From positions 76,384,001 to 76,448,000 of the forward strand of contig OZ024747.1 of the NCBI GenBank assembly GCA_964016885.1: DNA of 64,000 nt, read 5' to 3'. The first letter of the stretch is position 1. Each line of letters begins with the position of its first letter. The stretch comes from Eledone cirrhosa (Eukaryota). Positions 1 to 63,546 of the stretch are shown in pieces. A program made the translations under genes and the position numbers. The notes below the pieces were generated by a model. That model saw only the letters and a list, made by a program, of their open reading frames with translations, did not search any database and was not told the origin of the DNA.

Positions 1-3000
1 TTGACAGTATATGTAGAATGTATTGGTAGTATCTGTAGAATGTATTGGCAGTATATGTAGAATGTATTGGCAGTATCTGTAGAATGTATTGACAGTATAT
101 GTAGAATGTGTTGACAGTATATGTAGAATGTATTGACAGTATATGTAGAATGTATTGGCAGTATATGTAGAATGTATTGACAGTATCTGTAGAATATATT
201 GACAGTATATTTAGAATGTATTGACAGTATCTGTAGAATGTATTGACAGTATCTGTAGAAAGTATTGACAGTATCTGTAGAATGTATTAACAGTATATGT
301 AGAATGTAGTGACAGTATCTGTAGAATGTATTGACAGTATCTGTGGAATGTATTGACAGTATATGTAGAATGTATTGGCAGTATATGTAGAATGTATTGA
401 CAGTATATGTAGAATGTATTGGCAGTTTATGTAGAATCTATTGACAGTATCTGTAGAATGTATTGACAGTATATGTAGAATGTATTGACAGTATATGTAG
501 AATGTATTGGCAGTATATGTAGAATGTATTGACAGTATCTGTAGAATGTATTGACAGTATATGTAGAATGTATTGACAGTATATGTACAATGTATTGACA
601 GTATATGTAGAATGTATTGGCAGTATCTGTAGAATGTATTGACAGTATCTGTAGAATGTGTTGACAGTATCTGTAGAATGTATTGACAGTATATGTAGAA
701 TGTATTGACAGTATCTGTAGAATGTGTTGACAGTATCTGTAGAATGTATTGGCAGTATCTGTAGAATGTGTTGACAGTATCTGTAGAATGTGTTGACAGT
801 ATCTGTAGAATGTATTGACAGTGTATGTAGAAGGTATTGACAGTATCTGTGGAATGTATTGACAATATCTATAGAATGTATTGGCAGTATATGTAGAAGG
901 TATTGACAGTATCTGTAGAATGTATTGACAGTATCTGTAGAATGTGTTGACAGCATCTGTAGAATGTATTGACAGTATCTGTAGAATGTATTGTCAGTAT
1001 CTGTAGAATGTATTGGCAGTATCTGTAGAATGTATTGACAGTATCTGTAGAAAGTATTGGCAGTATCTGTAGAATGTATTGACAGTATCTGTAGAATGTA
1101 TTGACAATATCTATAGAATGTATTGGCAGTATATGTAGATGGTATTGACACTATCTGTGGAATGTATTGACAGTATATGTAGAATGTATTGACAGTATCT
1201 CTAGAATGTATTGACAGTATCTGTAGAATGTTTTGACAATATCTGTAGAATGTATTGACAGTATCTGTAGAATGTATTGACAGTATCTGAAGAATGTATT
1301 GACAGTATCTGTAGAATGTATTGACAGTATATGTAGAATGTATTGGTAGTATCTGTAGAATGTATTGGCAGTATATGTAGAATGTATTGGCAGTATATGT
1401 AGAATGTATTGGCAGTTTCTGTAGAATGTATTGACAGTATATGTAGAATGTATTGACAGTATCTGTAGAATGTATTGACAGTATCTCTAGAATGTATTGA
1501 CAGTATCTGTAGAATGTATTGACAATATCTGTAGAATGTATTGACAGTATCTGTAGAATGTATTGACAGTATCTGAAGAATGTATTGACAGTATATGTAG
1601 AAGGTATTGACAGTATCTGTGGAATGTATTGACAGTATATGTAGAATGTATTGGTAGTATATGTAGAATGTATTGACAGTATATGTAGAATATATTGACA
1701 GTATATGTAGAATGTATTGACAGTATCTGTAGAATGTATTGACAGTATCTGTAGAATGTATTGACAGTATATGTAGAATGTATTGACAGTATATGTAGAA
1801 TGTATTGGCAGTATATGTAGAATGTATTGACAGTATCTGTAGAATATATTGACAGTATATTTAGAATGTATTGACAGTATCTGTAGGATGCATTGACAGT
1901 ATCTGTAGAATGTATTGACAGTATCTGTAGGATGCATTGACAATATCTGTAGAATGTTTTGACAGTATCTGTAGAATGTATTGACAGTATCTGTAGGATG
2001 CATTGACAGTATATGTAGAATGTATTGACAGTATATCTAGAATGTATTGGTAGTATATGTAGAATGTATTGACAGTATATGTAGAATGTATTGACAGTAT
2101 CTGTAGAAAGTATTGACAGTATCTGTAGAATGTATTAACAGTATATGTAGAATTTATTGACAGTATCTGTAGAATGTATTGACAGTATCTGTGGAATGTA
2201 TTGACAGAATATGTAGAATGTACTGGCAGTATATGTAGAATGTATTGACAGTATATGTAGAATGTATTGGCAGTTTATGTAGAATGTATTGACAGTATCT
2301 GTAGAATGTATTGACAGTATATGTGGAATGTATTGACAGTATATGTAGAATGTATTGGCAGTATATGTAGAATGTATTGACAGTATATGTAGAATGTATT
2401 GGCAGTATATGTAGAATGTATTGACAGTATCTGTAGAATATATTGACAGTATATTTAGAATGTATTGACAGTATCTGTAGGATGCATTGACAGTATCTGT
2501 AGAATGTATTGACAGTATCTGTAGGATGCATTGACAGTATCTGTAGAATGTATTGACAGTATCTGTAGGATGCATTGACAATATCTGTAGAATGTATTGA
2601 CAGTATCTGTAGAATGTGTTGACAGTATCTGTAGAATGTATTGACAGTATATAAAGAATGTATTGACAGTATATGTAGAATGTATTGACAGTATATGTAG
2701 AATGTATTGACAGTATATGTAGAATGTATTGACAGTATATGTAGAATGTATTGACAGTATCTGTAGAATGTATTGGCAGTATATGTAGAATGTATTGACA
2801 GTATCTGTAGAATGTATTGACAGTATCTGTAGAATGTATTGACAGTATCTGTAGAATGTGTTGACAGTATCTGTAGAATGTATTGACAATATCTGTAGAA
2901 TGTATTGACAGTATCTGTAGAATGTATTGACAGTATCTGTAGAATGTATTGACAGTATCTGTGGAATGTATTGACAGTATATGTAGAATGTATTGGTAGT

Positions 3001-6000
3001 ATATGTAGAATGTATTGACAGTATCTGTAGAATGTATTGTCAGTATATTTAGAATGTATTGACAGTATATGTAGAATGTATTGACAGTATATGTAGAATG
3101 TATTGGCAGTATATGTAGAATGTATTGACAGTATCTGTTGAATGTATTGACAGTATATGTAGAATGTATTGACAGTATATGTAGAATGTATTGACAGTAT
3201 CTGTAGAATGTATTGACAGTATATGTAGAATGTATTGGCAGTATCTGTAGAATGTATTGACAGTATATGTAGAATGTATTGACAGTATCTGTAGAATGTA
3301 TTGACAGTATCTGTAGAATGTATTGACAGTATATGTAGAATGTATTGGCAGTATCTGTAGAATGTATTGACAGTATCTGTAGAATGTGTTGACAGTATCT
3401 GTAGAATGTATTGACAGTATATGTAGAATGTATTGACAGTATATTTAGAATGTATTGACAGCATATGTAGAATGTATTGGCAGTATATGTAGAATGTATT
3501 GACAGTATATGTAGAATGTATTGGCAGTATATATAAAATGTATTGACAGTATCTGTAGAATGTATTGACAGTATCTGTAGAATGTATTGACAGTATATTT
3601 AGAATGTATTGACAGTATATGTAGAATGTATTGACAGTATATGTAGAATGTATTGGCAGTATATGTAGAATGTATTGACAGTATCTGTTGAATGCATTGA
3701 CAGTATATGTAGAATGTATTGACAGTATATGTAGAATGTATTGACAGTATCTGTAGAATGTATTGACAGTATATGTAGAATGTATTGGCAGTATCTGTAG
3801 AATGTATTGACAGTATATGTAGAATGTATTGACAGTATATGTAGAATGTATTGGCAGTATCTGTAGAATGTATTGACAGTATCTGTAGAATGTATTGGTA
3901 GTATATGTAGAATATATTGACAGTATATGTAGAATGTATTGACAGTATCTGTAGAAAGTATTGACAGTATCTGTAGAATGTATTGACAGTATCTGTGGAA
4001 TGTATTGACAGTATATGTAGAATGTATTGGTAGTATATGTAGAATGTATTGACAGTATATGTAGAATGTATTGACAGTATCTGTAGAATGTATTGACAGT
4101 ATCTGTACAATGTATTGACAGTATATGTAGAATGTATTGGCAGTATCTGTAGAATGTATTGACAGTATCTGTAGAATGTATTGACAGTATATGTAGAATG
4201 TATTGACAGTATATTTAGAATGTATTGACAGTATATGTAGAATGTATTGACAGTATATGTAGAATGTATTGGTAGTATATGTAGAATGTATTGACAGTAT
4301 ATGTAGAATGTATTGACAGTATCTGTAGAAAGTATTGACAGTATCTGTAGAATGTATTGACAGTATATGTAGAATGTATTGACAGTATCTGTAGAATGTA
4401 TTGGCAGTATCTGTAGAATGTATTGACAGTATCTGTAGAATGTGTTGACAGTATCTGTAGAATGTATTGACAGTATATGTAGAATGTATTGGCAGTTTAT
4501 GTAGAATGTATTGACAGTATCTGTAGAATGTATTGACAGTATATGTGGAATGTATTGACAGTATATGTAGAATGTATTGGCAGTATATGTAGAATGTATT
4601 GACAGTATATGTAGAATGTATTGGCAGTATATGTAGAATGTATTGACAGTATCTGTAGAATATATTGACAGTATATTTAGAATGTATTGACAGTATCTGT
4701 AGGATGCATTGACAGTATCTGTAGAATGTATTGACAGTATCTGTAGGATGCATTGACAGTATCTGTAGAATGTATTGACAGTATCTGTAGGATGCATTGA
4801 CAATATCTGTAGAATGTATTGACAGTATCTGTAGAATGTGTTGACAGTATCTGTAGAATGTATTGACAGTATATAAAGAATGTATTGACAGTATATGTAG
4901 AATGTATTGACAGTATATGTAGAATGTATTGACAGTATATGTAGAATGTATTGACAGTATATGTAGAATGTATTGACAGTATCTGTAGAATGTATTGGCA
5001 GTATATGTAGAATGTATTGACAGTATCTGTAGAATGTATTGACAGTATCTGTAGAATGTATTGACAGTATCTGTAGAATGTGTTGACAGTATCTGTAGAA
5101 TGTATTGACAATATCTGTAGAATGTATTGACAGTATCTGTAGAATGTATTGACAGTATCTGTAGAATGTATTGACAGTATCTGTGGAATGTATTGACAGT
5201 ATATGTAGAATGTATTGGTAGTATATGTAGAATGTATTGACAGTATCTGTAGAATGTATTGTCAGTATATTTAGAATGTATTGACAGTATATGTAGAATG
5301 TATTGACAGTATATGTAGAATGTATTGGCAGTATATGTAGAATGTATTGACAGTATCTGTTGAATGTATTGACAGTATATGTAGAATGTATTGACAGTAT
5401 ATGTAGAATGTATTGACAGTATCTGTAGAATGTATTGAGAGTATATGTAGAATGTATTGGCAGTATCTGTAGAATGTATTGACAGTATATGTAGAATGTA
5501 TTGACAGTATCTGTAGAATGTATTGACAGTATCTGTAGAATGTATTGACAGTATATGTAGAATGTATTGGCAGTATCTGTAGAATGTATTGACAGTATCT
5601 GTAGAATGTGTTGACAGTATCTGTAGAATGTATTGACAGTATATGTAGAATGTATTGACAGTATATTTAGAATGTATTGACAGCATATGTAGAATGTATT
5701 GGCAGTATATGTAGAATGTATTGACAGTATATGTAGAATGTATTGGCAGTATATATAAAATGTATTGACAGTATCTGTAGAATGTATTGACAGTATCTGT
5801 AGAATGTATTGACAGTATATTTAGAATGTATTGACAGTATATGTAGAATGTATTGACAGTATATGTAGAATGTATTGGCAGTATATGTAGAATGTATTGA
5901 CAGTATCTGTTGAATGCATTGACAGTATATGTAGAATGTATTGACAGTATATGTAGAATGTATTGACAGTATCTGTAGAATGTATTGACAGTATATGTAG

Positions 6001-9000
6001 AATGTATTGGCAGTATCTGTAGAATGTATTGACAGTATATGTAGAATGTATTGACAGTATATGTAGAATGTATTGGCAGTATCTGTAGAATGTATTGACA
6101 GTATCTGTAGAATGTATTGGTAGTATATGTAGAATATATTGACAGTATATGTAGAATGTATTGACAGTATCTGTAGAAAGTATTGACAGTATCTGTAGAA
6201 TGTATTGACAGTATCTGTGGAATGTATTGACAGTATATGTAGAATGTATTGGTAGTATATGTAGAATGTATTGACAGTATATGTAGAATGTATTGACAGT
6301 ATCTGTAGAATGTATTGACAGTATCTGTACAATGTATTGACAGTATATGTAGAATGTATTGGCAGTATCTGTAGAATGTATTGACAGTATCTGTAGAATG
6401 TATTGACAGTATATGTAGAATGTATTGACAGTATATTTAGAATGTATTGACAGTATATGTAGAATGTATTGACAGTATATGTAGAATGTATTGGTAGTAT
6501 ATGTAGAATGTATTGACAGTATATGTAGAATGTATTGACAGTATCTGTAGAAAGTATTGACAGTATCTGTAGAATGTATTGACAGTATATGTAGAATGTA
6601 TTGACAGTATCTGTAGAATGTATTGGCAGTATCTGTAGAATGTATTGACAGTATCTGTAGAATGTGTTGACAGTATCTGTAGAATGTATTGACAGTATAT
6701 GTAGAATGTATTGACAGTATATGTAGAATGTATTGACAGTATCTGTAGAATGTATTGGCAGTATATGTAGAATGTATTGACAGTATCTGTAGAATGTATT
6801 GGCAGTATCTGTAGAATGTGTTGACAGTATCTGTAGAATGTATTGACAGTATATGTAGAATGTATTGACAGTATCTGTAGAATGTATTGGCAGTATCTGT
6901 AGAATGTATTGACAGTATCTGTAGAATGTATTGACAGTATCTGTAGAATGTGTTGACAGTATCTTTAGAATGTATTGACAGTATATGTAGAATGTATTGA
7001 CAGTATCTGTAGAATGTATTGGCAGTATGTGTAGAATGTATTGGCAGTATCTGTAGAATGTATTGACAGTATCTGTAGAATGTATTGGCAGTATCTGTAG
7101 AATGTGTTGACAGTATCTGTAGAATGTATTGACAGTATATGTAGAATGTATTGACAGTATCTGTAGAATGTATTGACAGTATCTGTAGAATGTATTGACA
7201 GTATATGTAGAATGTATTGGCAGTATCTGTAGAATGTATTGACAGTATCTGTAGAATGTATTGACAGTATATGTAGAATGTATTGACAGTATATTTAGAA
7301 TGTACTGACAGTATATGTAGAATGTATTGACAGTATATGTAGAATGTATTGGTAGTATATGTAGAATGTATTGACAGTATATGTAGAATGTATTGACAGT
7401 ATCTGTAGAAAGTATTGACAGTATCTGTAGAATGTATTGACAGTATCTGTGGAATGTATTGACAGTATATGTAGAATGTATTGGTAGTATATGTAGAATG
7501 TATTGACAGTATATGTAGAATGTATTGACAGTATCTGTAGAATGTATTGACAGTATCTGTAGAATGTATTGACAGTATATGTAGAATGTATTGGCAGTAT
7601 CTGTAGAATGTATTGACAGTATCTGTAGAATGTATTGACAGTATATGTAGAATGTATTGACAGTATATTTAGAATGTATTGACAGTATATGTAGAATGTA
7701 TTGACAGTATATGTAGAATGTATTGGTAGTATATGCAGAATGTATTGACAGTATATGTAGAATGTATTGACAGTATTTGTAGAAAGTATTGACAGTATCT
7801 GTAGAATGTATTGACAGTATATGTAGAATGTATTGACAGTATCTGTAGAATGTATTGGCAGTATCTGTAGAATGTATTGACAGTATCTGTAGAATGTGTT
7901 GACAGTATCTGTACAATGTATTGACAGTATATGTAGAATGTATTGACAGTATATGTAGAATGTATTGACAGTATCTGTAGAATGTATTGTCAGTATATGT
8001 AGAATGTATTGACAGTATCTGTAGAATGTATTGGCAGTATCTGTAGAATGTGTTGACAGTATCTGTAGAATGTATTGACAGTATATGTAGAATGTATTGA
8101 CAGTATCTGTAGAATGTGTTGACAGTATCTGTAGAATGTATTGACAGTATATGTAGAATGTATTGACAGTATCTGTAGAATGTATTGGCAGTATCTGTAG
8201 AATGTATTAACAGTATCTGTAGAATGTATTGACAGTATCTGTAGAATGTGTTGACAGTATCTTTAGAATGTATTGACAGTATCTGTAGAATGTATTGACA
8301 GTATCTGTAGAATGTATTGGCAGTATCTGTAGAATGTATTGGCAGTATCTGTAGAATGTATTGACAGTATCTGTAGAATGTATTGGCAGTATCTGTAGAA
8401 TGTGTTGACAGTATCTGTAGAATGTATTGACAGTATATGTAGAATGTATTGGCAGTATCTGTAGAATGTATTGGCAGTATATGTAGAATGTATTGACAGT
8501 ATATGTAGAATGTATTGACAGTATATGTAGAATGTATTGGCAGTATCTGTAGAATGTATTGACAGTATATGTAGAATGTATTGGCAGTATCTGTAGAATG
8601 TGTTGACAGTATCTGTAGAATGTATTGGCAGTATCTGTAGAATGTATTGACAGTATATGTAGAATGTAATGGCAGTATCTGTAGAATGTATTGACAGTAT
8701 CTGTAGAATGTATTGGCAGTATCTGTAGAATGTATTGACAGTATCTGTAGAATGTAATGGCAGTATCTGTAGAATGTATTGACAGTATCTGTAGAATGTA
8801 ATGGCAGTATCTGTAGAATGTATTGACAGTATCTGTAGAATGTATTGACAGTATCTGTAGAATGTAATGGCAGTATCTGTAGAATGTAATGGCAGTATCT
8901 GTAGAATGTATTGACAGTATATGTAGAATGTATTGGCAGTATCTGTAGAATGTATTGACAGTATCTGTAGAATGTATTGACAGTATCTGTAGAATGTATT

Positions 9001-10267
9001 GGCATTATCTGTAGAATGTATTGACAGTATATGTAGAATGTGTTGACAGTATCTGTAGAATGTATTGACAGTATCTGTAGAATGTATTGACAGTATCTGT
9101 AGAATGTATTGACAGTATCTGTAGAATGTATTGGCAGTATCTGTAGAATGTATTGACAGTATCTGTAGAATGTATTGGCAGTATCTGTAGAATGTATTGA
9201 CAGTATCTGTAGAATGTATTGACAGTATCTGTAGAATGTATTGGCAGTATCTGTAGAATGTATTGACAGTATATGTAGAATGTGTTGACAGTATCTGTAG
9301 AATGTATTGACAGTATCTGTAGAATGTATTGACAGTATCTGTAGAATGTATTGACAGTATCTGTAGAATGTATTGACAGTATCTGTAGAATGTATTGACA
9401 GTATCTGTAGAATGTATTGGCAGTATCTGTAGAATGTATTGACAGTATATGTAGAATGTGTTGACAGTATCTGTAGAATGTATTGACAGTATCTGTAGAA
9501 TGTATTGACAGTATCTGTAGAATGTATTGACAGTATCTGTAGAATGTATTGACAGTATCTGTAGAATGTATTGACAGTATCTGTAGAATGTATTGGCAGT
9601 ATCTGTAGAATGTATTGACAGTATATGTAGAATGTGTTGACAGTATCTGTAGAATGTATTGACAGTATCTGTAGAATGTATTGACAGTATCTGTAGAATG
9701 TATTGACAGTATCTGTAGAATGTATTGACAGTATCTGTAGAATGTATTGACAGTATCTGTAGAATGTATTGGCAGTATCTGTAGAATGTATTGACAGTAT
9801 ATGTAGAATGTGTTGACAGTATCTGTAGAATGTATTGACAGTATCTGTAGAATGTATTGACAGTATCTGTAGAATGTATTGACAGTATCTGTAGAATGTA
9901 TTGGCAGTATCTGTAGAATGTATTGACAGTATCTGTAGAATGTATTGACAGTATATGTAGAATGTGTTGACAGTATCTGTAGAATGTGTTGACAGTATCT
10001 GTAGAATGTATTGACAGTATCTGTAGAATGTATTGACAGTATCTGTAGAATGTATTGACAGTATCTGTAGAATGTATTGACAGTATCTGTAGAATGTATT
10101 GGCAGTATCTGTAGAATGTATTGACAGTATATGTAGAATGTGTTGACAGTATCTGTAGAATGTATTGACAGTATCTGTAGAATGTATTGACAGTATCTGT
10201 AGAATGTATTGACAGTATCTGTAGAATGTATTGGCATTATCTGTAGAATGTATTGGCATTATCTGCA
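1..10267 (+). repeat. 22-bp tandem satellite (consensus TTGACAGTATCTGTAGAATGTA), about 466 copies in window, running off the left edge
   Basis: Continuous 22-nt period. The unit starts at position 1 and still starts in register at 9901 (450 x 22). Variants are point changes (GAC/GGC, ATCT/ATAT, TGTA/TGTG). Confidence 0.99.
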
Positions 10268-10376
10268 GAGTATCAGCCAACATCTTTGTGAAATAGACTG
10301 GAGTCACATTCAAGTCCCACCGATGTTAAATTTGCTTTTCATCCTTACGGGGTCGATAAAATAAATCACCAGTAAC
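10268..10376 (+). mobile_element. Body of tRNA-derived SINE (B-box and central region) fused to the end of the 22-bp satellite
   Basis: TTCAAGTCCCACCGATGTTAAATTTGCTTTTCATCCTTACGGGGTCGATAAAATAAATCACCAGTAA matches the SINE copies at 17944, 19674 and 22346. Confidence 0.85.
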
Positions 10377-11365
10377 GTCCATCTTCTCGACTTTGATGGC
10401 CTTGCGCTTAAATCATTATTTTACTACGAAGGTCGTTTCATAGGAAGTATCCATCGAGCTTCAGGTAACTATTATCTTATGTTTTGTTGGTTTAATCGTA
10501 TTCCTCCACAATACACTTATATTACATACATTTTCAATAGTTGTATGAATACTTCTAATTACAACATGGACAACATATCCAAACTAATTACAAATTAACT
10601 GCACTTATTATGAATACTGGCAATATTTCTGGTTAATTTTTCCATTTAAAAGGAGAATGTTACAACAATAATGATTAAAGTACATAGAAGAAATCTCTTC
10701 TGAGAAAGCTGGTACAAAGGAAAGAAAACAAAGTGATTTTCTTGCCAAGTTTTTTAGTTAGAAAGTGTACAGATAGCACGTCTCCTAGGAGCAAAGCAAA
10801 ACTGCACATGCTGAGAAGTAAATTATGATTGTCACTATTTATCCATGCGTATGGAATAAAAAAAACTGAATGGAACTCACTATTTAGACAAAATTGAATT
10901 TTTTTCAGAATCTTTATGCAAACAGCAATCACTTCTTCAAAAGACGTTCGTAAAAGTACAATCGAAACTAAATCAAGCCATAATGCGTTCGATATTGGAA
11001 AGAATGTGAAACTATATATTGAAGGTGAATCTCTGAGACGAGTGACTATATGAAGTTGCACTTAAACGAAGTGTAATTCCTGAAAAAAGATTCATATTGT
11101 TTGAGAATATTATTTTATCAAGGATGACAGCTTCTTGTATGAAAAATTACTTAGCTAAAGGCATCTACGAATGTGTTTTTACTAAGCAGCATCACAATTT
11201 GTATGTCATTCTAGAACTTCAGATGAGACAATCTCTATTGTAAATATGGCCCTGTTGGCTATGTTTATACAACTGCAACTTTTACTGTACGATATGTATC
11301 TGCTTTAAAATATCGATGCATGGGAATACCATATATACATACATACACACACACACACATGTATG

Positions 11366-22520: not shown

Positions 22521-22628
22521 ATTATTTAATTATTCTGTGCAGAGATTCAGTATTGTATCAAAGGAACGATCATATCCAGATATATTTGAAAATACAAGAT
22601 GATGTTATTTGACAACTCTAGAAATAAT

Positions 22629-22811
22629 TGTTTCTACTTTTGGCACAAGGCCATCAATTACACAGTACATTACTCGTACTTTATTTTATCGACCCCGTAA
22701 GGATGAAAGGCAAAGTTAACCTCGGCGGGATTTGAACTCAGAATGGCAAGGGCCGTAACTCTATGCGTCAAAGCATGGCGTCCGACCCTCTACCGATACT
22801 GCCAATCCACC
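22629..22811 (-). mobile_element. tRNA-derived SINE with 18-bp TSD
   Basis: Reverse-complement copy. TSD GACAACTCTAGAAATAAT at 22611-22628 and 22812-22829. Confidence 0.9.
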
Positions 22812-25833: not shown

Positions 25834-26507
25834 GATAAATTTCAGAAAGTCGGTAGAATGCGGTAGAAATATATAAAAGGCAAACGATGAGAAATAAAAC
25901 AAAGTAATGTTTTACGCAGTATATATCAAGATGATATTTCAGGGCTAATACCCCCTCTTCATATGTTAAAGGAAAACGGTTCTAAAGAGCTGAGCTGGTA
26001 GAAAGCTGGGAATTTAGAGTTAGTAAGTTCAACAGTTTTTACTATGAAATATAATCTAAGTTCAGCATATAAGCAAGTGGTTCGCAGTACAGGCTTGTAC
26101 AGTGTCATACATTCAGTGTCATTGTACAGTGTCATTGTACATTGTCATATATACGTACATACATACATATGTACATACATACATAGGTACATACATAGAT
26201 CCATACAATTCGAGATTGCAATTAAGTAATTGATAGTCGTCAGCAATATTAAGTGAGTTTTAGGTTGCCATTGAAAGGTTATTGTTGTTTATATCGGTGA
26301 AGAACAATGGATTGTATCTGTTGGTCTGCGGTTTTCCTTGGGAAACGTTTACTCTATCTATCTCGTTATGTTTGGAAGTGTTAATGCTGTATTGTCTGGG
26401 ATGTTCAATACAGGAGTGACTATTGAATATAATATATATAAATATATATATATATATATAGTATAAAAAAACGAAAAGTCAGTGATGCATCTGGACTCAG
26501 TTTATTG

Positions 26508-26598
26508 CGTGTTACAATTGTTTCGCCGGCAGGTAGCTCGAAACATGATCACTGTATGGATCTGGCTGATTCTACGATTGCAGGTTCCTTCGGACACG
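26508..26598 (-). ncRNA. Minimal hammerhead motif (inverted-arm copy)
   Basis: Reverse complement of the 26748-26838 motif. Confidence 0.55.
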
Positions 26599-26747
26599 GG
26601 TAGTTCGTTCGGAGCAAATTTTCTCACTGGGGTGTTATCGTCAAAAAACACCTTCAAAAAACATCTTGACAAGAGTGGAAGATGTTTTTTGAAGGTGTTT
26701 TTTGACGATAACACCCCAGTGAGAAAATTTGCTCCGAACGAACTACT

Positions 26748-26838
26748 CGTGTCCGAAGGAATCTGCAGCCCTAGAATCAGCCAGATCCATACAGTGATCA
26801 TGTCTCGAGCTACCTGCCGGCGAAACAATTGTAACACG
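26748..26838 (+). ncRNA. Minimal hammerhead motif
   Basis: CGTGT-CCGAAGG-...GCAG...CTGCCGGC-GAAA-CAATTG-TA-ACACG, followed by AATAAA at 26840. Confidence 0.6.
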
Positions 26839-27063
26839 CAATAAACTGAGTTCAGATGCATCACTGGTTTTTCGTTTTTTTATACTATCCACACACTACT
26901 CTGTATGAATAGCTACCATTATACACAAGTATATATATGTATGTATGTATATATATATTTCTAGAAAACAAAAGCCAATAGCAAGACAAGAGTGGAAGAT
27001 GATTTTGATGGTGTTTTTTAAAGCTAACACCCCAGTGAGAAAATTTGTTCCGAAAGCATTGCA

Positions 27064-29364: not shown

Positions 29365-30480
<1,116 letters not shown>

Positions 30481-31520
30481 ATATAAACCAACATTGATCA
30501 TTGTCGGTGGATAAGTAGAAACAGTAAAATGTCAACCAAAAGGCAATTCAGTAATTATTTTCTCCATTCTCTTTCTAATTATGAATCCAGATACCAACTC
30601 CATTTATTAGCATACCGAGACGTGTTCTTAACTTAGACTTCTCGCTAGTATCGAGATCTTGGGGTTCATTTATCAGTTCTTCATAGTTTAAAATATTATT
30701 TTCATAAAATTTCAGTTTACTATGTGGTACTCTAGCGGTCATTTTCTCTCTGTTTCTCTCTATCCCTTTCTTTCTAATTCTTTCTCTCCCCCCCCCCTCT
30801 CTCTCCCTCTCTTTATCTGTCTCTCTCTCCCTCTATCTCTCTCTCTTTCTGTCGCTCTCTCTATGTATATATTACATATATATGTGTGTGTTTGAATAAA
30901 AACACATCTTGTTTTCTCTTATTTTTCTCTTTTTGTGTTAAACACTTTTTATTAAAAAATATATTAAACGAAAAATATAAATGTATCTTGTTATCTCACA
31001 ATAACAATGTTTTCAATCAAGCCTTGACCTTGGCGACGGCGAGGAATTTTCTTTTCCGAACAAAATAAAAGAGCTTTGCTTGCTGGATAGAACAAGATTA
31101 GAGTGACTTTACAGGTCAATCAAATTTCAACATCCATCTTGTATTATTTGAGTAAAAGTCTTATCAAGTTTAATCAAATTTTCAAACTTTTATTTTACTT
31201 TCATATTAACAAAAGAAAAGACAACATTAAATGTGAATGCCTTTATACTACACAAAAAGAAATCATTTTTTAATATTATTTTTTATCTTGTGTATATTCT
31301 GTGTTCGACAATGATGAAGACTTTTTTCATAGATTTCTGTCTGACACAGAGGGGCTTTTTTTTACTCACATATATGAATAAATATTGTTATGAGCACGGT
31401 TTATAACAACTTATTTCGTGAAACTGCACAGTAATTTCTTCAAAAGCCTCTAGCTGTAACTTAACTAATGTCTTGCGAGAAATATTTAGTAGCGAGAAAT
31501 TGTGCTCGAAATATGCATAC

Positions 31521-34369: not shown

Positions 34370-35542
<1,173 letters not shown>

Positions 35543-39728: not shown

Positions 39729-39815
39729 TATGTTAGCATGAGTTTGCATCCTCCTCTGAACTTTCATTGGAGACTAAATTGTATGCAAAAATGGTGCGTG
39801 AATGTATGCAAGTGA

Positions 39816-39899
<84 letters not shown>

Positions 39900-40017
39900 T
39901 ATATAATATATATATATATAATATATATATATATATATAATATATATATAATATATATACATATAACATATATATATAAATATAAATAAATCTATATATA
40001 TATATATTATATATAAT

Positions 40018-40051
<34 letters not shown>

Positions 40052-40198
40052 ATATATATATATATATATTATATATATATATTATATATAATATATATAT
40101 ATATAGATTTATTTATATTTATATATATATGTTATATGTATATATATTATATATATATTATATATATATATATATATTATATATATATATATTATATA

Positions 40199-40256
<58 letters not shown>

Positions 40257-40343
40257 TCACTTGCATACATTCACGCACCATTTTTGCATACAATTTAGTC
40301 TCCAATGAAAGTTCAGAGGAGGATGCAAACTCATGCTAACATA
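39729..40343. repeat. About 615-bp palindrome centred on an AT-only tract
   Basis: Unique arm 39729-39820 is the reverse complement of 40252-40343; the inner AT-rich sequence is also mirrored (TAAATAAATCT/AGATTTATTTA). Confidence 0.93.
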
Positions 40344-40398: not shown

Positions 40399-40540
40399 TA
40401 TATGAATATGTATGTGTGTGTGTGTGCGCGCGCGCGCGTGCGTGAGTGCGGGTGTGTGGGTGGGTGTGACTATGAATACAGCAGATTTCCTCCAGAGAAG
40501 GATAGTGAGTGATGGAATTGAAGTGAGAAAGAGATATATA

Positions 40541-41672
40541 CCGACCCTCAATGGATGAAAGGGAAAGTTGACCTCTCTGGGATTTGGACTCAGAGAGCAG
40601 AGAGCCAAAACGTATACCGCAAAACATTCTATCTGACGTTCTAACGACTGCCATTCTATCTGACGCTCTCACCACTCTACCATTCTATCTGACATTCTCA
40701 CCACTCTACCATTCTATCTGACATTCTCACCACTCTACCATAATATCTGACGTTCTAACCACTCTAGCATTCTATCTGACGCTCTCACCACTCTGCCATT
40801 CTATCTGACGTTCTCACCACTCTACCATTCTATCTGACGCTCTCACCACTCTAGCATTCTATCTGACGCTCTCACCACTCTGCCATTCTATCTGACGTTC
40901 TCACCACTCTACCATTCTATCTGACGCTCTCACCACTCTACCATTCTATCTGACGTTATCACCACTCTACCATTCTATCTGACGTTCTAACCACTCTACC
41001 ATTCTATCTGACGTTCTCACCACTCTGCCATTCTATCTGACGTTCTCACCACTCTACCATTCTATCTGGCGTTCTCACCACTCTACCATTCTATCTGACG
41101 TTCTAACCACTCTACCATTCTATCTGACGTTCTCACCACTCTACCATTCTATCTGACGTTCTAACGACTGCCATTCTATCTGACGTTCTCACCACTCTGC
41201 CATTCTATCTGACGCTCTCACCACTCTACCATTCTATCTGACGTTCTCACCACTCTGCCATTCTATCTGACGTTCTAACCACTCTACCATTCTATCTGAC
41301 GTTCTAACGACTGCCATTCTATCTGACGTTCTCACCACTCTACCATTCTATCTGACGTTCTCACCACTCTACCATTCTATCTGACGTTCTCACCACTCTA
41401 CCATTCTATCTGACGTTCTCACCACTCTACCATTCTATCTGACGTTCTCACCACTCTACTATTCTATCTGACGTTCTCACCACCCTACCATTCTATCTGA
41501 CGTTCTAACCACTCTACCATTCTATCTGACGTTCTCACCACTCTACCATTCTATCTGACATTCTAACCACTCTACTATTATATCTGACGTTCTAACCACT
41601 CTACCATTCTATCTGACGTTCTAACAACTCTACCGTTCTATCCGACGTTCTAACAACTCTGCCAATTTACCG
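40541..41672 (-). mobile_element. tRNA-derived SINE with an internal tandem expansion of its head
   Basis: Minus strand: GGTAAATTGGCAGAGTTGTTAGAACGTCGGATAGAA head, then the array, then CTGAGTCCAAATCCCAGAGAGGTCAACTTTCCCTTTCATCCATTGAGGGTCG body. Confidence 0.82.
40625..41665 (+). repeat. 29-bp tandem satellite (CATTCTATCTGACGTTCTCACCACTCTAC), about 36 copies with a few 27-bp variants
   Basis: Tandem units read directly from the sequence. Confidence 0.97.
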
Positions 41673-45069: not shown

Positions 45070-45460
45070 TGGATTGGTGATATTGGAAGAGCGTCGAACA
45101 ACAAGCATAGTGGCATAGAGTTACAGCCCTTTACGTTCTGAGTTCAAATGCCTCCAAAGTTAGCTTTGCCTTTCATCATTACGGGGTCGATAAAATAAAG
45201 TACCTGTAGCATACTGGGGCCGATTCAATCGGCTTTCCTCTCCCCTCAAATTGCTGGCCTTGTGCCTATAGTAGAAATCATTATTATTATTGTTATATAT
45301 GCTTTGCCGCATATAGTTATGGCCCTTTACATTCTGAAATTAGCTTCCTCTTTCATTATTCAGGTACAATAAAACAAAGTACCAATAATGCACTGGTGGC
45401 GATTTAATTGATTCCTCTCCCCCTAACTTGTTGGCCTCCTGCTTAAATAAGCAACCGTTA
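45070..45460 (+). mobile_element. Two tandem diverged tRNA-SINE copies
   Basis: TTCTGAGTTCAAATG...GCCTTTCATCATTACGGGGTCGATAAAATAAAGTACC...GGCCTTGTGCCTATAGTAGAAA-(ATT)n, followed by a more decayed copy. Confidence 0.8.
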
Positions 45461-48722: not shown

Positions 48723-48912
48723 CATCTTTACCCCTCCTAGAGGTGAAAAACCTGTTTTAAAAAAAATTTTGTGTAAAAAATTTCAATCGTCTAACAGAAA
48801 TGTTAAACGCAGCGAACGAAAATAGTGGTGGGGGACAGCGGTAAGAGTTGTAAGCTCGCACGCTTTAGTCCTCCCTTCCTTCCCAACTAACGTCATAGAG
48901 AAGGAAGGAAAA

Positions 48913-50676
48913 ATGAAAATAAAAACGGACGAATCTGCGGAGAAAAAATTAAATGACGAAAACAACGAAAAAAAAAAATTTGAAAAATTGCATGACAATA
49001 CTAATAACACAAACAAAGACACAACAAACAAAAAAATAACAGTTGAAAATAACATAATATCAGAAAACAAAGCAGACGACAAGATTTCATTTGCACAGAA
49101 AACAAAGAAATCTTTGACTTATATAGCGGAAAACATTTCAGATGTGGTACGAAGGATCACGGACGCAAAACAATACATAAGTGAAGGTGAGAATGGTATT
49201 TTATTGGTAAAAATGCCTCAAGAATTCACGAAAGACATTGAAAGCCGAACGGTCAAGTTTCGGACCATCAACAACAGTACAAAAAAACCTGAACAGCCTT
49301 CTCAAGCAGATATCAAAACAGTACTCGCAGAAGTACTGAATGAAACAACTTTCATAAGAAAAGACAGACTGTATGGAAGCCTAGCAATTATCATGAAGAA
49401 CGAATCGGCGGCAAAAAAATGTGCTTTGTCACCGATTCGTTCGAAAAATTTCACCTTTTATCCATCTTATATGGGGAAAAAAACTCAACGCATATGGCTG
49501 GATGCAATGATGCCAGATGTGGACTACTGCTGGCTCATAGCTGGCTTCATCGATCCAGTGAATGACAACGTGATTTCCATTGGGAAAACCACAGGCAATG
49601 CGTTCAGTGGAACAGGTATAGAGCTGGTAGTACAAATGAAGCCTGAACGCATCGCCCAAATACCCGACAGAATCCTATTAGAGGACCACGGGTATATAAA
49701 CATTAGCGTGGAGGGGAGAAGGCCGTCCTGCCATATCTGTGCAGGCAGAGGGCACCTGAAGGCCGCTTGTCCCCAACTCAACAAAAAGAAAACCCTGCTA
49801 CCAACACCAGCTCCACCACCACCACCACAACAGATAAACAAACAACAAAACTCAGTCCCACCCAACCCGTCCCTCAGTAACACCACAACACCACCACAAC
49901 ACAAACAGTCACAACACATTACCCCAAAACAAAATACAGGCCCACCCAACCTCTCACTCAATAAAACAACACAACCACCGCAGACACAACACACAACACA
50001 GTCTAACATAGTGACATCCATCTCCCCCACAAAGAAAACCAACACGGAAACATTACCAGCAAACATACCTCTTCCCTCCAACACTGAAGATAACCCAACG
50101 AATTCGGAGGAAGAAACGGAGTCCTTCAGACAGATTAAAAGGAAAAAAAGAAAACATGTGCAAAACACACAAGGACAAACAACCCCCACCCAAATCGCAA
50201 CACAATCTAACAAAACAGAAAACACCCCTCCAGCAACAAACAAAACCAAACCTGCCCCTCCCCTCTTCGAAACACTCACACCATCGGAAAAAAAGACATT
50301 ACACTATACTTACATCAACAGAAACAATAATAAATTAAATGAACTCATATACAATAATCCTTCGGTACAAACCGAAGGTGTAAACTTTGTTTCATCAGAA
50401 AACCACCCACATTTAAAACTAATAAAAATCCCAATGAACCTCTACCAAAAACTAAAAAAGGATTTTAAGGAGGACGTAGGACCACCCTCTGTCAAACCCA
50501 TAAACCGCGTCCTACTAAAAAGCTTTCCCCCTCCCCTTCCCCTCCCCAACACAACTCCAAACACCCCAACCCCACCACACACCGACGACCCCACACCACC
50601 ACAAGACACCCCTTCACCCAACACCCCCGACCCCATGGAAGTCGTGCAACCCGAACCCCGGGAAGCGGAAAGGTAG
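48913..50676 (+). CDS. LINE ORF1 protein (nucleic-acid binding; CCHC zinc knuckle; Pro/Thr/Gln-rich C-terminal half)
   Basis: 587-aa ORF with CHICAGRGHLKAAC (CX2CX4HX4C), located upstream of the RT ORF. Confidence 0.9.
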   Translation: MKIKTDESAEKKLNDENNEKKKFEKLHDNTNNTNKDTTNKKITVENNIISENKADDKISFAQKTKKSLTYIAENISDVVRRITDAKQYISEGENGILLVKMPQEFTKDIESRTVKFRTINNSTKKPEQPSQADIKTVLAEVLNETTFIRKDRLYGSLAIIMKNESAAKKCALSPIRSKNFTFYPSYMGKKTQRIWLDAMMPDVDYCWLIAGFIDPVNDNVISIGKTTGNAFSGTGIELVVQMKPERIAQIPDRILLEDHGYINISVEGRRPSCHICAGRGHLKAACPQLNKKKTLLPTPAPPPPPQQINKQQNSVPPNPSLSNTTTPPQHKQSQHITPKQNTGPPNLSLNKTTQPPQTQHTTQSNIVTSISPTKKTNTETLPANIPLPSNTEDNPTNSEEETESFRQIKRKKRKHVQNTQGQTTPTQIATQSNKTENTPPATNKTKPAPPLFETLTPSEKKTLHYTYINRNNNKLNELIYNNPSVQTEGVNFVSSENHPHLKLIKIPMNLYQKLKKDFKEDVGPPSVKPINRVLLKSFPPPLPLPNTTPNTPTPPHTDDPTPPQDTPSPNTPDPMEVVQPEPREAER

Positions 50677-50709
50677 GTCTCTACACTCTCCTTTGGCTCT
50701 GCCGCCCAC

Positions 50710-53700
50710 ATGGATGTGTTAAGAGTAGGATGTTTGAATGCACGTGGCCTGGGCTCAACTTGGAAGCAAGCAAAGCTTCTAAATGACCTCAGGTCATGTA
50801 GTATAAATGTAATGGTTATCTGTGAGACTCGAATCAGCGTCATGCGGCAGCTGGCCCCCACCTTCGATGACTTTGAGGTGCATGCATCTCTCTGTCAACC
50901 TGGAGGTGGGGGTGGGGTTGTCGTGCTGCTGCAAAAACACCTGGGTCTTGCCGTACAGGTTGTGCACTCGGACCCGGAGGGTCGTTTGTTGGTGCTAGAC
51001 GTTGGCAGTAGTGAAAGTGCGGCCTTGAGACTGGTCGCCGTCTACTCCCCTTTCGGAGCTGAACGGCCCGACTTCTTCCAGCGTTTGGAGACTTTTCTGG
51101 GAACGTCGCGTTCCCTGCTTCTAGCGGGGGATTGGAATGACATCCTAGATGCACGTTGGGACTATGCAGGAGCATGTCCTAATAGAGGGGGGTGTAACAG
51201 CCTCAAGGGGTTACTCGACCGTTTTAACTTGGTCGATAGATATCGACTAGATTTTACAACTGTGCCTACCTGGACTTGGAGAAACCACAGTGGTCAATCT
51301 AGATCGTACTTAGATAGATTCTTAGTTAGAAGTAAGGATAGGGACATATTAAGCTGTCCAGAAATGCGCACGGTTGGCTACACGGATCACAAATTAGTGA
51401 CCTGCGTGGTCAATCTCGAGAAAACACATAGACAGGGTCCCGGTTACTGGAAACTTAATTTGTCTTTACCGGCAAAAGAGACTTACAGAAACCGGATTAG
51501 CAGATTAGTTAAGGAGAGGTTGACGGGTGCAATCGTCAACAACCGATGGTGGGCATCTCTCAAAAGAGAGATTAGAACAGAATCAATAAGTTATAGCAAG
51601 ATGTTAGCTGCCAATAGGAATAGAAACGAGAAAGAATTAACAGGTAAATTAGAAGAGGCAATCAAGAGCGAAGATGTGGCCAGAGTGCTGGCATCGAGGA
51701 CGGCCTTGAACCAGTTTTTCGATGCAAAGCATGAAGGCTGCGTCATTCGAAGTAAAATACGTGCTCTAGGTAATGAGGGGGCCAAAGCCGTTGGATGGGC
51801 CCGCGTGACAGAAGCTAAAAGTGGAAATCGATCCACCATCCGGTCGTTGCAAGACGAAGATGGACGAGTGATCCGGGAGCCTAAGCAGATGTGCGAGGCC
51901 TTTCAAAAGCACTTTGCCCGATTGTTCGGGGGAGGCGAGGGTCCGGGCCGGGGCGTGGATTTCGGTCCATACCTCGACGGCCTGCCGCGTCTCTCGAACA
52001 AAGAGGCGGAGTCCTGCGAGGGACCAATCTCGGCTGATGAGATCGGAGATGCGCTGAGCCAATGCAGCAGACGCAAATCTCCAGGTCTCGATGGTATACC
52101 TTACGAACTTTATTTAGCAATGCCGGTCTTCTTCTCCGAACTCCTCGAAGCGGTCTACTGCAATTGGCAGCAGAACGGGAGAATTCCTTGTTCTGTAGCC
52201 AAGGGCGTAGTCACGCTGGTGAGGAAGGACGAGAACAAGGGGGATAGTATAAATAATTTTCGGCCCATAACCCTGCTAAACACAGAGTTAAAGATTTTGG
52301 CCAAGGTGTTAGCAAAGAGGTTGGCGCTTGTCGTGGGTGGCCTGGTGGGAGATGCGCAGACATGTGCTATCCCATCCAGGTCCATTCACGATAACCTCCA
52401 CCTCATGCGATACATCATAGAGAGGGTTGGCAACAAACCCGGCTTCGGTGGGGCCCTGATCAACTTGGATCAGTCTAAGGCCTTCGATAGGGTCGACCAT
52501 GGTTACCTGGATGCGGTGCTAGCGGCGGCTGGGTTCGGTCCTGTTTTCAGAGGCTGGATCACTGCCCTACATAGCAACCACATCTGTTCTAGGATCAAGG
52601 TGAACGGCTACCTTTCGAAGCCGTTCGAAATCACACGATCCATTCGACAGGGGTGCCCTCTCTCCTCCCTTCTGTACGTATTGACTCTCGAGCCTTTACT
52701 GAGGAAGTTGGAGTTGTTGCAGGGTATCCCCCTGGAACCAGGATTGAGCAAAGCGGTGTCGGCCTACGCCGATGACGTAACAGTAATGGTATCAACCGAC
52801 TCGGAGATCGAGGCGATCGGTACCTTACTGGAGGAGTACGAAAGGTTGTCAGGAGCGAAACTGAACCGGGAAAAATCCATCGGGCTGCAACTCGGAACGT
52901 GGAGAGGCAGACCGATGCCTCCCGATGGTGTCGTCGGACACTGGACGGAGGGCCCGGTAAAGTTGCTTGGGGTCTGGTTTGGACCGGACCTCCAGGTGGA
53001 AAAGAACTGGAACGAGGTTACGAACAAGGTGTTTGCACTAACCCAGAAATGGGCCAAGTGTAAGCTGTCCCTAAAAGGCCGGGCGGAGGTGGCGAACATT
53101 TACATAGCGTCCGTCACTTACTACCGCCTGACTGTCGTGCCTTGCCCTAAGGAAACACTCACCACCATGGAACGCATGCTCTTCCAATTTCTTTGGAAGA
53201 AGCGTCCTCCTATGGTGAGAAGATCCATCTGCTGCCAACAACCTTCGAAAGGAGGGCTGGGGATGCCGTGGTTGATGATGCGTAGGCACGCATTAAGGCT
53301 ACGGCACCTACTGGTATTCCTCACTGGTCAACCGGTGTGGGCTCCGTTCGTGAAACGAGCCTTTCCGACACTCGTCTCACTCACCGAGCTACAGTCCTGG
53401 GTCAAGCAAAGATCCGGAAAACTGGGAGACTGGCACACTGAGTGTGCTCAGGCGCTCAGGGCTCTCTGGCAAGCGGGCCGGGCCATCGGTGGAGAATCCA
53501 CCTCATCATTCTATAGAGGGCTGGTGGCTAGCAGGGGCGATGACACCCTTGGAGAGTCGCTGGACATGGAAGAAGACGAACTGGCCAGCCTGTTCGGTAG
53601 GACTTTCGGCCCAGGACCAATGGACAACTTCCAGAAGTCACTGGCCTGGCAGTGCTACCGGGGGGCTCTACCCGTTCGAGAGAGGCTCTACAGACACGGG

Positions 53701-54147
53701 CGCCCGGGCAGGGATCCCTCAAAAAAGATTTGCCCTAGATGCGTGCGTCACGAAGAAACCGTAGCGCACGCATTGGTGCAATGTCCGGGCGTGGCTGATC
53801 TGTGGGGCTACGCCGAACAACTGCTGTCGCGGGTGGCGCCGATTAAATTGACCGCCGAGTCCGTGATGACAATCAAACCGCCTCCCCTCTTCACAAAGGA
53901 AGCAAAGGCGGTTTTTCTGTGCGTAATAGCCATGTTGAAAGAGGTTGTTTGGTGGACACGATTGAAAGGTCTGAGGTCAGGCAACTTCCTCTCTGGCCAT
54001 AGTCTGGTCTACTTCTTCCGATATCACTTCGGAAGAAGGATAAGAATGGAGAGAGTGGTGCTTGGCCACAGGCAGTTTTATGAAAGGTGGGTGATAGTGG
54101 CGAGAATGGCTCGTGTAAATGGGCCTTCTCTGTATACCATCCTGTAG
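50710..54147 (+). CDS. LINE ORF2 polyprotein: APE-type endonuclease, reverse transcriptase, C-terminal zinc-binding domain (Tx1-like)
   Basis: 1145 aa: NARGL, GDWN, SYLDRF, TDH (EN); GPGYWKLN, KSPGLDG, FRPITLLN, DQSKAFDRV, QGCPLS, YADD (RT); CPRC..ETVAHALVQC. Confidence 0.97.
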   Translation: MDVLRVGCLNARGLGSTWKQAKLLNDLRSCSINVMVICETRISVMRQLAPTFDDFEVHASLCQPGGGGGVVVLLQKHLGLAVQVVHSDPEGRLLVLDVGSSESAALRLVAVYSPFGAERPDFFQRLETFLGTSRSLLLAGDWNDILDARWDYAGACPNRGGCNSLKGLLDRFNLVDRYRLDFTTVPTWTWRNHSGQSRSYLDRFLVRSKDRDILSCPEMRTVGYTDHKLVTCVVNLEKTHRQGPGYWKLNLSLPAKETYRNRISRLVKERLTGAIVNNRWWASLKREIRTESISYSKMLAANRNRNEKELTGKLEEAIKSEDVARVLASRTALNQFFDAKHEGCVIRSKIRALGNEGAKAVGWARVTEAKSGNRSTIRSLQDEDGRVIREPKQMCEAFQKHFARLFGGGEGPGRGVDFGPYLDGLPRLSNKEAESCEGPISADEIGDALSQCSRRKSPGLDGIPYELYLAMPVFFSELLEAVYCNWQQNGRIPCSVAKGVVTLVRKDENKGDSINNFRPITLLNTELKILAKVLAKRLALVVGGLVGDAQTCAIPSRSIHDNLHLMRYIIERVGNKPGFGGALINLDQSKAFDRVDHGYLDAVLAAAGFGPVFRGWITALHSNHICSRIKVNGYLSKPFEITRSIRQGCPLSSLLYVLTLEPLLRKLELLQGIPLEPGLSKAVSAYADDVTVMVSTDSEIEAIGTLLEEYERLSGAKLNREKSIGLQLGTWRGRPMPPDGVVGHWTEGPVKLLGVWFGPDLQVEKNWNEVTNKVFALTQKWAKCKLSLKGRAEVANIYIASVTYYRLTVVPCPKETLTTMERMLFQFLWKKRPPMVRRSICCQQPSKGGLGMPWLMMRRHALRLRHLLVFLTGQPVWAPFVKRAFPTLVSLTELQSWVKQRSGKLGDWHTECAQALRALWQAGRAIGGESTSSFYRGLVASRGDDTLGESLDMEEDELASLFGRTFGPGPMDNFQKSLAWQCYRGALPVRERLYRHGRPGRDPSKKICPRCVRHEETVAHALVQCPGVADLWGYAEQLLSRVAPIKLTAESVMTIKPPPLFTKEAKAVFLCVIAMLKEVVWWTRLKGLRSGNFLSGHSLVYFFRYHFGRRIRMERVVLGHRQFYERWVIVARMARVNGPSLYTIL

Positions 54148-57660: not shown

Positions 57661-57795
57661 TAACCCTAATCTTAATCCTAACACAACCATTAACGCTACC
57701 ACTGACACAACCCTTAACCCTACCACTAACATAATCCTTAATCCTACCACTAACACAACCCTTAACCCTACCACTAACACAAGCCTTAACCCGAA
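57661..57795 (+). repeat. 24-bp minisatellite with TAACCC motifs (AACCCTTAACCCTACCACTAACAC)
   Basis: About 5 tandem units read from the sequence. Confidence 0.85.
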
Positions 57796-58128: not shown

Positions 58129-59399
58129 GTGTATGTGTGTGTGTATGTATGTACAATAAATATCAACATTTGATTGAAGAATTTCAATAAGAAAGGAATA
58201 CAATTAAATATGAACTCAATGACTTGAGAATGTAGACAAAACAAAAGCCTAATTTAAACGAATGAAATAGCCGTTGGCTGGGAACGATTTTCATCTAATT
58301 ATTCAATGATTTTGATCGAATGAAGACGTATCACAGACAAAAGAATATCTATCCGAACATTATACTAAACGTTGGTCTGATAATCGGGAGTGTACAGAGT
58401 GTAAAGTGCACTTACATGATATAAGCAGACACATAACAAATTATATTATTCTTTGTCAGAAATAAATTGTTTTAAGTTAGGATAACAGAAATATAAATAG
58501 AAATAGAATTGTCGTAAGATTGAATACGAGGTAGTAAATCTCCTAAAACCATTGGGTGTAAGAAGGTAACAACAGACGAGGAATTCAGTATTATGGATGA
58601 AATTCAAATTGTTCAATATTTGATCTCACCCTCTTACCCTCCCTTTCTTTCGTCGCTTGATTCTTTTTCTTGTTTTTTCTATTAATTTATTTTTTTTTGG
58701 ATCCCTTCAATAACGGTTTTTGTTTTTGATTATGGTTTTAATTCAAAGATCCACTCATGTTATAAATTGAGTCATGTACAGATTGATTGAGTCATATACT
58801 TGTTATATTAACATGTAATGGCAAAAGTGTTTCAAAGACACGTGTATCTAATGGAAATTCTCACATCAAATCTACATGATTCAATCTGTAACAAGAACGG
58901 ACCTTTTAAATTCATTTATAATCAAAGCTGTTTATACAAAACATAAAACACACTGTTGATGAACGAAAAGAACAAAAAAAGGAAATGAGAAGAAAAAGAA
59001 AAAAAGAATCAAGTAACGAAAGGAGGGACACACACTACACCCTAAGTCTGGGTGGTGCCTCAGCCGTATCCTGCAGTCCGACGAGTCCGGACACAGGTTC
59101 ACTTACTAATTTGCATCGACGCTTTCACAAGATGCCACACTGTAGGGAAAAAAAACCTGAATCTTATGATGGCGTGGTGATCTTCTTAACTACTCAACCA
59201 TGCTTGAGTCTATAAGGTATGAGAAACATATATAATATGGCAAGGTAAAGAAATAATTTTTTCTTTCTATGTATATCAGGGAGTTATATTTCTACCATAT
59301 GTGTGTGTGTGTGACAGCTTACACCTATGCAGGTTTAGCTGGCCTCATCCAACGTATATCTCGTTAGAGGTGCCTTGGGTAATTTAATGATAGGGACTC

Positions 59400-59536
59400 C
59401 AGTCCTAACATCTCATTTCTACAGCTGAGTAAACTGGAGCAACGTGAAATAAAGTGTCTTGCTCAAGGAAACAACACATCACCCGGTCCGAGAATTGAAC
59501 TCACAACCTTTGTTTGCAAGCTCAATGCTCTAACCA
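59400..59536 (-). mobile_element. tRNA-derived CORE-type SINE fragment
   Basis: Minus strand: TGGCTTAGTGGTTAGAGC...GTGAGTTCAATTCTC...CCTTGAGCAAGACACTTTATTTCAC. Confidence 0.75.
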
Positions 59537-62998: not shown

Positions 62999-63445
62999 AA
63001 TAATAATGCAAGTAATTATTTAAGTGGTGGTGGTGAGAGCGTTGATGTTGATTACTTCTTTTACGATTACAGTCTTTCCCGTTACATTAATAAGAAGGTA
63101 GGAATGTGCCATAATTGTAAGGAATTATTCACAAACAGTACAGTATTAGATGCGAAGAAAAAAAAACGTTAATGATGCTTTGATGAAATCTTAGATAAAA
63201 TATCAATGTAATTTCTACCAAGAATCCAACACGTATATTTTGGATGAAAAAAGAATGATTAAGCATGAGATTGGAAGAAACGGATTGCATCATACTAATT
63301 GCGTATTTAATTATCTTTTAAGCCTTCATAGAATTATGTTGAGACACCTGTCGAAGATGAAATGGGAAATAAATCAAAGTCACACCGTTGAGTGAAGATA
63401 GATTTAAACCATCAATATAATTGCATCAACATGCATAAGAATGGT

Positions 63446-63546
63446 GGTGCCTGGCCTAGTGGTAAGGGTGTTGGACACTTACGATCATAATGTCGTGGGT
63501 TCGATTCCTGCGCTGCATTGTGTGTTGTGTTCTTAAGCAAAACACA
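63446..63546 (+). mobile_element. tRNA-derived CORE-type SINE 5' part
   Basis: TGGCCTAGTGGTAAGGG...GGGTTCGATTCC...GTGTTCTTAAGCAAAACAC. Confidence 0.7.

Follow-up and report, generated by a model that had tools for sequence, protein, structure and literature searches.

A minisatellite of A-box units inside an old SINE copy of Eledone cirrhosa, a putative member of a genome-wide family of SINE-head repeats

We identified a tandem array of 36 units, each derived from the A-box segment of a SINE head, inside an old SINE copy in a 64,000-nucleotide stretch of Eledone cirrhosa DNA (contig OZ024747.1, positions 76,384,001 to 76,448,000; hereafter the window). Sequence comparisons indicate that this array is a member of a genome-wide repeat family that has one unit junction and that is also found in a second species. 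The parts of the focal copy, listed in the direction of its minus strand, and the two unexpanded copies used for comparison are as follows.

41665..41671, minus strand: SINE leader, head positions 1-7, single, upstream of the array (ungapped register with other heads)
40627..41664, minus strand: minisatellite, 36 units of head positions 8-36, the A-box segment (TRF and in-register cut)
41636..41664, minus strand: unit 1, closest to the ancestral state, with 4 differences from the array consensus (in-register cut)
40539..40626, minus strand: decayed SINE body (profile match, E 3e-15)
40591-40581, minus strand: mutated B-box of the focal copy (fails the B-box consensus)
40561-40541, minus strand: central conserved motif of the focal copy (sequence)
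40468..40538, minus strand: CT-rich tail of the same SINE subfamily, multi-copy and not unique flank (contig depth; similar tail after the copy at 29365)
29366..29510, plus strand: unexpanded copy, probably of the focal subfamily (CT-rich tail; head differing from the unit at 7 of 29 places; profile)
22622..22811, minus strand: young unexpanded copy with an 18-bp target-site duplication, the reference for head numbering (profile and alignment)

TRF reported a period of 29 with 36.1 copies, 92% matches and a score of 1709 at 40625-41664, and cutting the array in register yielded 36 units, 33 of 29 bp and three of 27 bp, with a total span of 1,038 bp. This bears out the initial annotation, which had described about 36 copies of a 29-bp unit on the minus strand. 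The intact head that it quoted is present as well, being the leader plus unit 1, the body motifs do follow the array, and the unit indeed derives from the SINE head, since it equals head positions 8-36 in an ungapped alignment. However, the array had been taken for an insert between head and B-box, and it is instead the A-box segment itself that has been multiplied; leader, array and body follow one another in register and without interruption. The term satellite was apt for a tandem array, but at this length it is a minisatellite. The units fall into 17 types in a non-periodic order, with a mean identity of 95% to the array consensus and 91% pairwise. An identical 27-bp deletion variant makes up units 13, 18 and 36, and units 1 and 2 have a private change in common. 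The first and last units are the least consensus-like and the most like single heads, and such ancestral-like edges are the pattern expected if the array grew between its two terminal units. G at position 17 (G17) is found in 31 of the 36 units; both terminal units lack it, as do all 10 single heads in the window (heads read by eye). The A-box consensus is matched exactly by 28 units and by no single head of the same family in the window; that is, the focal array fits this consensus better than its parent heads do. The unit strand is 72% purine, and no hairpin was detected in the units, which fold at -0.2 to -1.2 kcal/mol, not better than shuffles; hairpin-driven slippage was ruled out on this ground. 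The array is most likely selfish or neutral.

A profile constructed from seven copies of the host SINE matched 16 places in the 64 kb outside the interior of a second array (array 1, below), including 12 copies with a head, and contigs beyond the window contain thousands of copy-equivalents of it. Target-site duplications of 18 exact bases flank 3 of the 11 copies tested, and one more copy has an imperfect one of 15. The B-box consensus has eight matches in the window, with 0.38 expected, and five of these are copies of the family, the focal copy not being among them. Because of the 18-bp duplications and the B-box matches, we read the family as a tRNA-type SINE retroposon with A- and B-box-like motifs; ARAGORN and Rfam reported no tRNA gene or Rfam RNA in the window. 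The element presumably resembles the common octopus SINEs, namely, OK, OR1 and OR2. SINE insertions at ATTAT sites with 18-bp duplications were seen at window positions 17940, 19670, 22810, 30025-30500 and 45070-45460, and the copies are arranged in chains, one placed at the tail of the other. The 22-bp central motif of the focal SINE has exact counterparts in the tRNA-SINEs of a distant animal, present in an estimated 10,000 or so metagenome stretches. A text search for this motif in the supplements of PMC4824008, PMC11481361 and PMC4758252 (all but one file per paper) gave no match, and by eye the centre of the element is only weakly similar to the 3' part of BivaCORE-SINE2. The window contains another tRNA-headed SINE family at 59380-59550 (minus strand) and 63445-63560 (plus strand); its CORE-like centre is BivaCORE-SINE2-like by eye, and both of its heads are single.

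The body of the focal copy, previously regarded as normal, turned out to be decayed: it has 68-71% identity to the four young copies of the window, which are 87-95% alike among themselves, its B-box is mutated, and a segment present in other copies 3' of the central motif is missing just before the CT-rich tail (loose ends at 40538). The private letters of this body are rare in the contigs of one sequenced organism (organism A, X1), where 96% of the records differ at 40613 and 92% at 40587. As the body is this distant from the young copies and its private letters are rare among the aligned records, the focal copy appears to be old rather than a young clonal copy. No target-site duplication was found for it. 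The likeness of the unit to unexpanded heads, which the initial annotation had pointed out, stands in part: the head near 29370 differs at 7 of 29 places, but a head near 30299 is absent from the matches with nine or fewer mismatches.

The second array lies at the start of the window.

1..10269, plus strand: array 1, at least 466 units of 22 bp, approximately head positions 3-26 of another subfamily, its 5' end outside the window (TRF, profile)
10248..10415, plus strand: terminal unit and SINE body of array 1 (profile, E 1.7e-22)

Among 105 TRF rows, only these two arrays have a period of at least 15 and at least 10 copies, and both are on heads of the focal SINE family. Since SINE heads occupy 0.8% of the non-array DNA, finding both long arrays on heads has p ~7e-5, and given that both lie within a SINE, finding both on the head has p ~0.03; both values are post hoc and come from a window picked for interest. 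Of the 12 heads in the window, two have given rise to arrays, whose boundaries differ. Because array 1 has a 22-bp unit, different boundaries and another subfamily, head-derived arrays arose at least twice. The earlier contrast between the two arrays in unit length, subfamily and strand is therefore confirmed, and extends to the boundaries. However, the focal array is independent with respect to array 1 only, since copies of its unit with the identical junction turn up throughout the genome and in a second species; this suggests a shared seed or exchange. The translation of array 1 had no match among 6,892 candidate proteins.

The window also contains an intact-looking non-LTR retrotransposon and a related fragment.

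48826-54147, plus strand: intact-looking non-LTR retrotransposon, ORF1 of ~590 aa and ORF2 of 1,145 aa with endonuclease, RT and zf-RVT domains (domain search)
20230-20976, minus strand: LINE-related fragment (sequence)

The sole named homologue of the LINE protein is from Argonauta hians (59%), an ORF1 search and exact look-ups gave no match, and by eye the LINE has no obvious tail in common with the focal SINE. Furthermore, we observed a near-palindromic MITE-like element of ~420 bp at 26460-26890, a 24-bp repeat of telomere-like TAACCC motifs (4.8 copies) at 57678-57792, and tRNA-like A- and B-boxes followed by a partial inverted copy of themselves at 13120-13460. A perfect 952-bp palindrome without spacer at 34414-35365, and a similar inverted duplication around a TA run at ~39740-40340, are possibly fold-back assembly artefacts.

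To look beyond the window, we used a bait covering 40450-40715 (body, tail and the last three units), and four of 11 sequencing runs were aligned at 80% likeness. This bait detects only the junction of units with positions 8-36, and it under-detects short arrays from the body side. The contigs of organism A contain 87% of a nearby stretch and may come from the assembly's own sample. Their summed depth is ~38,000 on the body vs 0.70-0.78 million across the junction of units 34 and 35 (single-copy depth ~7), and in organism C (X6) the corresponding values are ~44,000 vs 1.9-2.0 million (single-copy depth ~19), giving junction-to-body ratios of 19.5 and 45.6, respectively. Division by single-copy depth gives ~100,000 unit-equivalents, a figure based on summed depth, which is no copy number and to which a few giant arrays could contribute most of the total. 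With a 31-fold correction for the worst-case overlap of short contigs, at least ~3,400 unit-equivalents are left, vs 36 at the focal locus. The signal in organism B is weak, with ~250 unit-equivalents, or 8 after the worst-case correction. Depth peaks across one unit junction, and because it does not dip at the junctions, the records beyond the window are read as tandem. The body is joined to more than one unit, in the same register and with 17-23 other letters, in 3 of the 24 pieces listed (X1 record 8; X6 records 23 and 24), and since these letters differ, the three pieces represent other loci. The exact end of two of them at 40669 is what would be expected of a copy whose upstream unit is ancestral-like. 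None of the pieces listed spans the whole bait, so the focal locus is unconfirmed from reads.

Three organisms have junction-spanning sequence in their contigs, and another individual has it in raw reads. Unrepeated single heads are common too, as indicated by loose ends at 40649 in 459 contigs (X1) and 1,039 reads (X9). Raw RAD reads from another individual cover the last unit at a depth of ~1,620, but the sequence past the junction at ~114 (7%), which roughly, and with bias, hints that a few percent of the subfamily heads are repeated. G17 appears to be the commonest state in organisms A and C, at ~55-65% by an estimate from two rows, under the assumption that one pool is sampled by both bait units. 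For the 27-bp type, the depth on the last unit is ~0.46 million in organism A, where it is amplified, and ~0.08 million in organism C, where amplification is not clear. A 27-bp variant with a further change at 40651 accounts for 71% of the depth in organism A and less than 2% in organism C, a difference that suggests species-specific turnover of the repeat. Neither SINE nor junction patterns were found in viral contigs, a first pattern search of metagenomes gave no matches, and the sole genome-contig match (L122) was a chance match inside a bacterial gene.

The initial annotation had further proposed that the A-box region is a recurrent satellite seed in a general SINE-to-satellite pathway. 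We retrieved 121 metagenome loci of the distant animal tRNA-SINE with the 22-bp central motif; of 122 anchors, 19 were dropped for having less than 200 bp upstream and 28 for lacking an A-box-like motif. At a threshold of 15 out of 22, positive controls scoring 15 and 16, a tandem head copy was detected in none of the 75 scorable heads, four of which reach 14, in short-read contigs that are biased against arrays. One of the 121 loci (L022) contains a head-to-tail partial dimer. Because none of the 75 heads is duplicated, the A-box alone does not obviously seed arrays, and with p ~0.03 post hoc and a bait that sees one junction only, these data do not establish the A-box as the cause of the arrays. 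Nor is a SINE-to-satellite pathway new, as it has been published for squamates (PMC10702118).

How the focal array came about can be considered in parts. Its growth in place is well supported, because the leader has been kept ~1 kb upstream of the last A-box and the private letters of the body are rare. Given the internal-promoter geometry of Pol III, one transcript would not be expected to contain both the array and a leader that lies so far upstream of the last A-box. For the fuller account, namely, that a probably inherited seed junction grew in place at many loci, here after the insertion of the copy, and that exchange followed, we put the chances at about even. According to this account, an ancestral source copy would have duplicated head positions 8-36 once and spread two-unit heads by retroposition, and Pol III could still start at the upstream A-box of such a head. 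Slippage and unequal exchange may then have multiplied the unit at the focal locus, the terminal units staying ancestral-like and the inner ones being homogenised, as the anatomy suggests; later exchange between arrays may have spread variants such as G17 and the 27-bp deletion type. Strong microhomology was not found at the junction, where the exact match is limited to 2 bp, and lag 29 scores 5 of 8, level with four other lags; repeated origin of an identical junction is unlikely for these reasons. However, only two records are compatible with two-unit copies, and this speaks against an inherited seed. A simple two-unit master is also countered by the lack of G17 in both terminal units, and G17 needs convergence or exchange under any reading.

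If instead each array arose de novo from its own single head, the A-box segment would have to be prone to duplication, owing to an imperfect flanking repeat of positions 8-36, its purine-rich strand or the binding of Pol III factors. An imperfect GAAT(T)G-type repeat does bracket the unit in single heads (loose end at 40649), and the purine content of the unit, the private change in units 1 and 2, the two arrayed heads with different boundaries, and the positional hotspots known for AluS and LTR12 (PMC3389668, available text) fit such a hotspot. However, one junction and shared variants recur in two species, the exact microhomology is so short, the unit has no hairpin, and no head is duplicated in the distant tRNA-SINE, albeit in contigs biased against arrays; we consider this origin possible but doubtful. 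Alternatively, an existing head-derived satellite may have converted the single head of an old copy by ectopic recombination or template switching, every SINE head being homologous to the unit. Such an import would agree with G17 in the inner units and in neither terminal one, with the 27-bp type at units 13, 18 and 36 and its strong amplification in organism A but not clearly in C, and with an old body beside units that resemble the genome-wide majority. On the other hand, both changes are possibly convergent, as one AG may be lost from AGAG, and T11 with G17 gives two identical TGGT sub-repeats, and the abundant 27-bp type of organism A mostly (71%) carries the 40651 change that is absent from the focal array; we regard import as rather unlikely. 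An extended form of it, in which a head-derived satellite converts the heads of old, dead SINE copies throughout the genome, so that hundreds of dispersed sites come to contain stretches of consensus A-boxes and species-specific variants sweep from locus to locus, seems to us equally improbable. If true, it would amount to dispersed concerted evolution with a built-in homologous target, and possibly to arrays that dock Pol III factors.

Two other explanations are far less probable. The whole array-bearing element may have been retrotransposed at about its present length, as transposition-propagated tandem repeats have been suggested for LTR12 (PMC3389668, available text) and as the quasi-oligomeric CHRS SINE contains more than 10 repeats of a ~20-nt motif (PMC3531059, available text). 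However, the focal body is old and private, the distance from leader to B-box is too great for one Pol III transcript, and no target-site duplication was found, making this very unlikely. It is just as implausible that an assembly artefact inflated a short duplication: the perfect palindrome in the window and the lack of a listed piece spanning the whole bait would be in line with this, but the 17 unit types are in a non-periodic order, and sequence spanning the junction was recovered from three organisms, in contigs, and from the raw reads of a further individual.

Among known systems, the closest are the SINE-derived satellites of squamates, sSat1-3 (Vassetzky, Kosushkin and Ryskov 2023, PMC10702118), which, according to the available text of that study, have units of ~70-290 nt that are uniform across snakes. 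As in sSats, the tandem units here come from part of a tRNA-SINE and the terminal units continue into SINE sequence; also as described there, a few unit types dominate a genome and may be common to related species, and long sSat arrays are homogeneous. Where an sSat calls for at least four middle monomers derived from a SINE part and a terminal unit running into the SINE, the focal array has 34 middle units and both termini continue. The use of one homogeneous unit at many loci is likewise seen here, in the 91% pairwise identity, the junction depth, and the 3 of 24 pieces listed that come from other loci. However, the unit is not one of ~70-290 nt from Squam1-3, but a 27-29 bp unit with the A-box only, whereas the main snake unit consists of box B and body (PMC10702118, available text). 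Furthermore, both SINE ends are kept here, while copies retaining both ends are called uncommon among sSats (PMC10702118, available text), and the host here is an invertebrate. The focal array works like an sSat without being a member of sSat1-3.

Alu-derived minisatellites were reportedly described by Jurka and Gentles in 2006 (as cited in PMC9659126). In those analysed by Ahmed and Liang (2012, PMC3389668), a short internal SINE segment was likewise expanded in place, with positional hotspots at AluS 59-137 and 176-206; unlike the present case, Alu is 7SL-derived, the units are mostly locus-specific, and an A-box unit is not named in the available text. The mouse B1-derived VNTR family (Bois et al. 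1998, as cited in the available text of PMC9659126) is similar in that one motif inside a SINE expands to arrays, but its unit is the 6-bp (GGCAGA)n, on a microsatellite scale. Quasi-dimeric and quasi-oligomeric SINEs such as B1 and CHRS (SINEBase, PMC3531059, available text) inherit an internal duplication of the source copy, which is the seed proposed here; however, their repeats travel with the element, and the long array here probably does not. We found no report of short A-box-unit SINE arrays in cephalopods in the full-text literature, mostly papers outside subscription, and the unit may be catalogued in Repbase, Dfam or SINEBase. No SINE-head arrays are reported in the available text of PMC6279123, PMC9795677 and PMC4758252, and the 2026 repeat annotation of Octopus vulgaris, in its available text, lists 80 satellite families without a SINE link (PMC13282606). 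SINE-derived tandem repeats themselves are known from squamate sSats, Alu and B1, and what appears to be new here is a short A-box-only unit embedded in SINE copies that retain both ends, in a cephalopod host.

The squamate study, in its available text, did not settle whether SINE-derived satellites exist outside squamates, nor by what route a few seeds rise to dominance (PMC10702118). In the family described here, each locus has its own clock, the SINE body, beside the array, so that an inherited seed, recurrent origin and conversion between loci would be separable with one genome. The array family also offers multi-locus VNTR markers, and it may explain part of the 3.1% satellite fraction given for Octopus vulgaris in the available text of PMC13282606.
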